From: Candidatus Kaiserbacteria bacterium
Lineage (GTDB): Bacteria; Patescibacteriota; Minisyncoccia; Phycocordibacterales; UBA2100
Direction: 5' to 3'
NCBI GenBank assembly: GCA_963767115.1
Contig: CAVYCR010000005.1
Span: forward strand, 89,582 to 153,581
Length of the DNA: 64,000 nt
Shown here: positions 8,678 to 10,408 of the stretch, one piece after another
Position numbering within the stretch: the stretch's first letter is position 1
How the letters are laid out: each line of letters starts with the position of its first letter
Translations under genes and position numbers: made by a program
Notes under the pieces: model-generated
What the model was told of the DNA's origin: nothing
The model's database searches: none
What the model saw: only the letters and a program-made list of their open reading frames with translations

Positions 8678-10408
8678 TTATTGCGCGGGTACGGCGGCGG
8701 GCGGAGGGATAGTTGCCTCCGTATCATCTGCTTGCAGCATCATGCTCGAAAGGCTGGACACTTCCGAATACGGGATCTTTTTGTCCATCGCCTTGAGGAT
8801 AGCGTCCTCGCGCATAGTGAGCATGCCTTGGCTGCGCGCAGCGGTCCAAATCTTCGACTCGACCGGGTTATCGAGCACGATCTTCTCGATTTCTGCCGAC
8901 ATCTCGAGCACTTCAAAGACTGCCATGCGGCCGCGCATACCCGTCGGGACAGGTCGAGGTCTTCTCAGGCTCGTATACCATATCCGGGATCGGAAACCGG
9001 TACTTCTCAGGGAGCGTCTTGAGCTGCGTTTCGATGTCGCGCTTCTCGCTCGGAGTGAGCTGCGTCTGTTCGCCCGTGCCCGTGCAGAGTGTTCGCACGA
9101 GACGTTGCGCGATCGAAATGATCAAGACCGGCGGGATGAGATACGGCTCGACGCCCATGTCGATGAGACGCGATATCGTGCCGACCGCGTCGTTGGTGTG
9201 GATGGTCGAGAGCACCAGGTGGCCGGTGAGCGCCGCCTGGAACGCAAGTTGCGCCGTCTCCTTGTCGCGGATCTCGCCGACCATGATGACGTCGGGGTCT
9301 TGGCGCAATGTCGTGCGCAAGCCCTGTCGCGAACGTGTAGCCGATCTCGGGCCGCATCTGCGACTGCGTGACGCCGTCGACGTAATATTCGATCGGATCT
9401 TCGAGCGAGAGCACGTTTTTCTTCTCGCGGTCGATCTCGGTGAGCATCGAATAGAGCGTCGTCGATTTGCCGGAGCCGGTCGGGCCGGAGATGAGGATGA
9501 GGCCGTGCGGCTGCTTGACGGCTTGCGCATGAGCTCGAGGTTGCGGTCGGTGAGGCCTGATCTGGTCGAGCGGAATGAAGCCCTGATCGCGGTCGAGGAT
9601 ACGTATCACGACCTTCTCGCCGCTATAGGTCGGGAAGGTCGAGACACGGAAGTCGATCTCGCGGCCGTCGATCGAGGCCGAGAAGCGGCCGTCCTGCGGC
9701 TTGCGCTGCTCGTCGAGGCGGATCGAGGCGAGGACTTTCATGCGCGCGACGAGCGCGCGATGCGTATTGAGGCGGCAAGATGACGCTCGTATGCAAATCG
9801 CCGTCGACGCGGTAGCGCACGCGCACGCCGTGTGGTGCGGCTCGATGTGGATGTCGGATGCCTTGCCGTCGATCGCATAACGCAGGATGGTCGAGACGAT
9901 CTTGATCGTCGGCGCGTCTTCTTGAATATTGCCGCCGTCGATGTTCTTGGCTTTGCGAGAGTGCGGGGTCATCGAGGTCGAGGAGCGGCTCTTCCCCGTC
10001 GTTTGCCGTAGGCTTTGTCTGCTTTTGCGCCTGCACGTCTTGTTCGACTTGGAGCTCAGAGACCGCACGATCAACTTCGCCGGTAAGTCCGCGATACATC
10101 TTGAGTACCTTATCGAAATCTATCTGCGTGATCCGAAACACTTTGAAGGGCATCCCCGTCGCACGCGCAATGAAATTCAGCGCATCTATTCCTTCGAGGT
10201 TGTCCGGGTCGACCATGCCGATCTCCAAGACGCCGTCGACAACCGCAAGCGGCGCTATCTTATAGTGTTCGGCACTCTCTTCAGGCACATAGCGCAGCAC
10301 GTCGTACGCCACCTTCTGCTGCTCGTCGAGCGTTCGCGTCGGTACCTGGAAGACCGGCTCCTCAAACGTGAGTGGTTTAGCAGCTTGACCTTTCACTTCC
10401 GTTGCCAT
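8678..10408 (-). pseudogene. pilB: type IV pilus assembly ATPase PilB/GspE, about 7 frameshifts
   Basis: GspE blocks are scattered over three frames (ORFs 9623-10408, 9007-10074, 8913-9530, 8678-8938). They include [52 protein letters not shown] and [14 protein letters not shown]. Confidence 0.85.

Follow-up and report, generated by a model that had tools for sequence, protein, structure and literature searches.

Type IV pilus assembly ATPases of the PilB type are encoded by Patescibacteria of the Paceibacterota/Kaiserbacteria, and MAG proteins from this group are the closest homologues of the PilB considered here (75-79% identity), which places its organism among the Patescibacteria as a Kaiserbacteria-like member. 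Once its reading frame is corrected, our protein resembles these ATPases by its MshEN and T2SSE domains and by its Walker A motif GPTGSGKS, and the gene lies in the order pilM..pilB-response regulator-pilT-pilC-pilins-pilD (Table 1). It differs from them in that the reading frame, as deposited, is interrupted seven times. A gene that can be read only by hopping between frames recalls the multi-frameshift pseudogenes of reductive genomes. In true pseudogenes, nonsense and radical changes build up, indels occur preferentially in homopolymers and the flanking DNA diverges as well. The nonsense or radical changes, homopolymer indels and diverged flanks of such pseudogenes are absent from our locus.

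A second kind of described system is the collapsed or chimeric consensus. Long-read assemblers that are oblivious to strains produce consensus contigs in which similar genomes are collapsed, and metagenome-assembled genomes are chimeric population bins (PMC8302730, PMC8012365). The locus analysed here shares with such products errors limited to segments common to related genomes, a mixed SNP content and frameshifted conserved genes on a contig whose remainder is exact (PMC8302730, PMC8012365). What sets our case apart is the apparent retention of both alleles of a wobble SNP, as suggested by the comparison of sequences presented below; in the literature, no paper was found describing such a retention. 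We consider, with a probability of about 0.85, that the frameshifts of the pil genes are assembly artefacts of the deposited contig, in which related Kaiserbacteria-like populations would have been mixed, and not a real feature. The window designates hereafter the whole stretch of 64,000 nucleotides that was analysed.

Table 1. Window coordinates of the pilus genes, the frameshift sites, the compared contigs and other features
Feature	Position	Strand	Remarks
Type IV pilus cluster	5.9-13.3 kb	minus	
pilM	12186..13340	minus	three small pilN/O-like genes belong to the same cluster
pilB	8678..10408	minus	GspE/PilB-type type IV pilus assembly ATPase
pilB ORF fragments as deposited	9623..10408, 9007..10074, 8913..9530, 8678..8938		
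Frameshift 1, +1	9955..9956	minus	extra base 9956; coding TCGC, Logan TCC (Ser)
Frameshift 2, -1	9836..9838	minus	missing base 9837; coding CCG-CA, Logan CCC TCA
Frameshift 3, +1	9772..9773	minus	extra base 9773; CCGC, Logan CCC (Pro)
Frameshift 4, +1	9555..9558	minus	extra base 9556; AGGC, Logan AAC
Frameshift 5, -1	9521..9524	minus	missing base 9522; AAG-CC GTC, Logan GCC GCC GCC
Frameshift 6, +1	9317..9319	minus	extra base 9318; CTTG CGC, Logan CTT CGC (Leu Arg)
Frameshift 7, +1	8944..8946	minus	extra base 8945; CCCG ACG, Logan CCC ACG (Pro Thr)
Response-regulator receiver gene	8264..8674	minus	between pilB and pilT
pilT	7185..8249	minus	retraction ATPase
pilC	5947..7166	minus	T2SSF platform protein; deposited in two pieces, 6954..7166 and 5947..6957
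pilD, prepilin peptidase	3789..2989		several prepilins also in the cluster
Second anomalous patch	19237..19387	plus	intergenic, between DUF5666 gene and sigma-factor gene
DUF5666 gene	18545..19258		
IS1595-family transposase	14922..15590		
Two recombinase-type ORFs	34391..35347; 51974..53305		
Drt2-type reverse transcriptase	35369..36751		
Type IIG/ISP fusion	39786..42914		
Second reverse transcriptase	44949..45989		
Two adjacent methyltransferases	47776..49811		
HlyD-like protein and RND transporter	54899..59784		
Logan contig L081	14109..9273		
Logan contig L082	9282..5685		
Logan contigs L083 (6166 nt), L084 (1392 nt), L085 (5651 nt), L166 (1747 nt)	15 kb elsewhere in the window		

Three PilB homologues (P0001, P0004 and P0009) were aligned with positions 8600..10450 of the window, minus strand, by frameshift-aware protein-to-DNA dynamic programming, and with each of them exactly seven single-base frameshifts were obtained, five of +1 and two of -1. 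As deposited, pilB does not form a single uninterrupted ORF: the frame ends at 9623 after 261 aa and the uncorrected ORF fragments match successive parts of the T2SSE domain in three different frames. After correction of the seven bases, the gene encodes a protein of 575 aa with zero stop codons, which matches model positions 3-367 of the 370 of PF00437 (T2SSE) with 382.6 bits and PF05157 (MshEN) with 39 bits. An earlier, sequence-only reading of this DNA had described PilB motifs hopping across all three frames, which was confirmed by three-frame translation, and about seven indels of both signs, which were borne out by the frameshift-aware alignment that it had proposed. In the course of this work, inteins in pilB were suspected from tblastn matches of about 2.4 kb; this candidate was rejected, the match in L002 (7614..10448) simply joining pilB to its neighbouring paralogue, pilT. 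By analogy with L002, the long tblastn matches in L028, L046, L049, L053 and L054 are read as the same joining of pilB and pilT.

Logan contigs, which are independent assemblies of the reads of the public run ERR11630394, were retrieved via exact-protein look-ups of intact window proteins, and six of them, spanning 23.4 kb of the window, were compared with it. In the literature, the run accession gave no matches. L081 presents 0 differences from the window across 14109..10153. Every one of the 76 substitutions and 11 single-base indels observed against L081 and L082 lies in the following tract, 10152..6814, and L083, L084, L085 and L166 match the window at 100% identity, with the exception of a 150-nt patch in L085. 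Across the 23.4 kb, the differences are therefore found only at 10152..6814 and 19237..19387, i.e. in discrete patches with exact identity elsewhere, as expected of an artefact. The 11 indels coincide exactly with the frameshift sites of pilB, pilT and pilC, and the composite of L081 and L082 contains a single uninterrupted pilB ORF of 575 codons, a pilT coding for 353 aa and a pilC coding for 406 aa. The receiver gene is intact, the window and Logan proteins being identical. Records of the protein collection are compatible with this partition: the frameshifted products are listed solely under the deposited NCBI/ENA contig (157,086 nt) and the intact PilT and PilC solely under Logan, whereas both sources have the flanking proteins.

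The view that the gene itself is shredded is thus not supported, since the Logan contigs carry an uninterrupted pilB and intact pilT and pilC with identical flanking DNA. An uninterrupted pilB ORF in the reads is what the sequence-only reading had named as decisive against it, and the read-derived contigs of ERR11630394 in effect provide this ORF; strain heterogeneity, which the same reading had raised, is the right lead. The same comparison bears on generic platform noise, i.e. the homopolymer errors or random indels that a noisy long-read or a flow-based platform would introduce. Such noise could produce the T6>T5 indel found at 6982, but this is the only one of the 11 indels of pilB, pilT and pilC situated in a run of at least 4 nt, in agreement with the earlier remark that these are not classical long-homopolymer errors; the 10 others lie outside homopolymers. 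Furthermore, outside the two patches about 20 kb are free of differences, the T7 run at 13453..13459 included, the indels co-occur with dense SNPs and, when an even spread along the contig was looked for, they were found not to be evenly spread. Platform noise is consequently given a very small probability.

The exact position of each frameshift in pilB was set by DNA comparison with these near-identical contigs. The positions previously proposed were within about 10 nt of the actual ones and their signs were correct, while some of the causes had to be revised. The site read at 9828-9829 as CC in place of CCC is in fact a T missing at 9837, adjoining a C>G change. The CCC run held responsible at 9322-9324 is not involved, the extra base being a G after CTT at 9318, outside the GGG/CCC run. 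The last shift is indeed an extra base, as proposed, but it is located at 8945 and not at about 8937, the protein context being ..TSTCP before the change of frame, with 12 residues given after it. At the fourth site, some homologues, e.g. L002, carry Gly (GGC), and at the fifth a single base has been lost at a multi-SNP site. Programmed ribosomal frameshifting or other recoding would also change the frame, and frame changes are indeed present, which is all that can be said for it. Against it, one gene would need seven shifts of both signs, X XXY YYZ slippery heptamers are absent from the sites on reading the sequence, over 100 homologues each have one continuous ORF, and an uninterrupted allele with identical flanks is found in the same population. 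The probability left to recoding is negligible.

Four further shifts, outside the coordinates to which the sequence-only reading was limited, were detected in the same tract, three in pilT and one in pilC. In pilT, three +1 insertions are located at about 7733, 7615 and 7464. The 354-aa ORF remains open and its middle part (about 7733..7464) is out of frame, so that the T2SSE match of the window PilT ORF covers model positions 11-185 versus 11-281 for the Logan PilT. About 90 garbled residues are contained in the PilT that was called and deposited. In pilC, the -1 shift at about 6982 splits the gene, which is intact in L082. Summed over each gene, the shifts amount to +3 in both pilB and pilT, where the original frame is regained; net shifts that are multiples of three in both genes would have a chance of about 1 in 9, which counts against an artefact. 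Genome-wide noise was considered and rejected: about 60 ORFs across the window were searched with Pfam and the codon frame was scanned intrinsically, and further clearly split genes did not appear.

The nature of the substitutions was then considered. In pilB, 41 of the 62 SNPs are at codon position 3. AT>GC changes outnumber GC>AT changes (42 vs 16), and the GC content of the pilB core rises from 59.4% in Logan to 62.0% in the window. Just 18 amino acids of PilB are changed, 12 of them toward a residue that is commoner than that of Logan among 61 homologues, and the changes in PilT are all conservative (S/T, I/L, V/I, N/H, N/G and G/S). When the indels are removed, stop codons are absent. Substitutions that are wobble-biased, conservative, GC-raising and homologue-like indicate that the variant bases come from a functional, related and more GC3-rich allele, and not from decay.

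These data can be confronted with a real and recent pseudogenisation, in which a sub-population would have lost type IV pilus function via multiple frameshifts in pilB, pilT and pilC. The indels do exist in the deposited public contig, the frame is disrupted at 11 sites (pilB 7, pilT 3, pilC 1), and a hit on all three motor/platform genes would make functional sense as the loss of one machine. However, the disruptions are not reproduced in independent data of the same population, the contigs of ERR11630394 being intact, and the signs of relaxed selection, i.e. nonsense codons and radical or random substitutions, are lacking, the substitutions being biased to the wobble position and conservative. 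The flanks are identical to those of the intact-gene contigs over about 20 kb, and a lineage with identical flanks is too young to have acquired 11 indels and 76 SNPs in 3.3 kb by ordinary mutation. Moreover, the indels shun homopolymers, where real slippage occurs, and an unrelated intergenic patch at 19237..19387 presents the same insertion-rich pattern. Pseudogenisation is for these reasons regarded as improbable.

In contrast to decay, a mixing of populations would account for the form of the indels. Seven of the eight insertions consist of a G on the coding strand. Five insertions directly adjoin a wobble C or T (TCC>TCGC, CCC>CCGC, CTT>CTTG, CCC>CCCG and CTC>CTCG), and the three others change AAC to ACAC, AGGC or GGGC, at sites where homologues carry His or Gly codons. 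Read plainly, the insertions look like both SNP alleles written into the sequence, and the two deletions of pilB like neither allele. A statistical case for a preference of insertions for wobble-adjacent slots was dropped, since two thirds of all slots are wobble-adjacent.

The process that we propose would involve one or several related, more GC3-rich populations, the DNA of which would be similar enough to co-align where conservation is highest, namely over the ATPase cores of the pilB and pilT genes and over a portion of pilC. An alignment-based consensus step would then mix both alleles of the co-aligned reads or contigs; candidates are the collapse of long reads into one consensus, a polishing step using cross-mapped reads, or the overlap merging of contigs ending in the conserved core. 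We infer a consensus step because a pure de Bruijn path lacks TCGC-type junction k-mers unless the reads carry them. The foreign base would win at many SNP columns, hence the substitutions. At some columns both alleles would survive and leave a +1 insertion, most often a G adjoining the original wobble base, and the loss of both at other columns would leave a -1 shift. The same mixing may have produced an insertion-rich supersequence in the second patch.

In this patch, the window is about 52 nt longer than L085, in more than 10 small blocks that are nearly all one-directional. By longest common subsequence (LCS), 94 of the 99 Logan bases are embedded in order within the 151 nt of the window, whereas shuffled controls gave a mean of 76 (SD 2.2) and a maximum of 83. 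Such a near-supersequence is what the merging of two divergent alleles would be expected to leave, unlike ordinary divergence, and the patch is probably the same consensus artefact as the pil tract. It lies upstream of the sigma-70-family gene and shifts the stop position of the DUF5666 gene.

Within the pil tract, the differences cluster in the conserved cores of pilB, pilT and pilC, and their density is correlated with cross-species DNA conservation (Spearman rho of about 0.4, p of about 0.001-0.003). Yet pilM, which is alignable across species, shows zero differences, and conservation alone is thus no predictor of the affected tracts. L081 and L082 break inside the most conserved motif of pilB (12 residues, 9273/9282), as is expected if other genomes of the run share k-mers there.

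The second allele was looked for in several collections. Among GTDB representatives, it was not found, the best PilB relative having 76% amino-acid identity, nor was it in the protein collection, where a search restricted to the core gave at best 90% over the core. In JGI metagenomes, an exact 41-mer of the window-specific allele gave 0 matches, and a protein-guided scan, with a best value of 83%, did not detect the allele. The Logan-sourced homologues P0145 and P0027, checked as candidates, both come from other runs. The failure to find a contig with this allele speaks against the proposed mixing. It also has a bearing on real mosaic alleles, i.e. on the repeated acquisition, by homologous recombination with a related population, of diverged segments of pilB, pilT and pilC by the Kaiserbacteria-like one, with indels arising by faulty heteroduplex mismatch processing at SNP sites, or already present in the donor, and a pilus motor inactivated in a sub-population. 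SNP tracts that resemble a foreign functional allele, in the segments most permissive for recombination, are compatible with such imports, and these bacteria encode pili of the DNA-uptake type. Nevertheless, at least three separate imports would be required, each with gene-inactivating indels; the donor allele was found in none of the searched collections; the intergenic supersequence would be left unaccounted for; and an intact version co-exists with identical flanks. We therefore judge mosaic alleles very improbable, and the mixed consensus remains the preferred reading.

Several other features of the window were recorded. One reverse transcriptase strongly matches Drt2, a defence RT (PADLOC, 404 bits), and is situated in a low-GC island (43-48%). 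A restriction-methyltransferase fusion of the Type IIG/ISP kind (1042 aa, 894 bits), another reverse transcriptase, of generic type (346 aa), and two adjacent N6/N4 methyltransferases are also encoded, and nearby ORFs of 408, 598, 512 and 425 aa gave no family matches. The fusion, the second reverse transcriptase, the methyltransferases and the family-less ORFs together look like a defence or mobile island. Besides an IS1595-family transposase, the window contains a complete large serine recombinase (443 aa) and a second recombinase-like ORF without N-terminal resolvase domain, which is possibly truncated. A HlyD-like membrane-fusion protein and a full-length AcrB-type RND transporter (627.7 bits) are encoded in a region of about 60% GC, versus around 50-55% in the rest of the contig. 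Their pairing is unusual in a Patescibacteria cell, which is presumed to have a single membrane. NCBI/ENA has a record of the exact AcrB protein, the Logan run has none. Look-ups of three window proteins, the HlyD-like one (54899-56569), the adjacent 59859-60509 and one of 425 aa (53311-54588), gave no records, probably owing to different start calls. A scan of the window with Rfam gave no matches.

The proteins derived from the artefactual tract are now present in public protein collections, e.g. the 354-aa 'PilT'. When a MAG contig is otherwise exact, a cluster of SNPs accompanied by non-homopolymer single-base indels and confined to its most conserved genes can be recognised as a signature of a mixed-population consensus; such clusters should not be counted as pseudogenisation, and their practical value is that of a MAG quality flag. 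Taken at face value, the contig would describe an ultra-small bacterium devoid of type IV pilus motors, which would be a wrong conclusion on its host attachment and DNA uptake.
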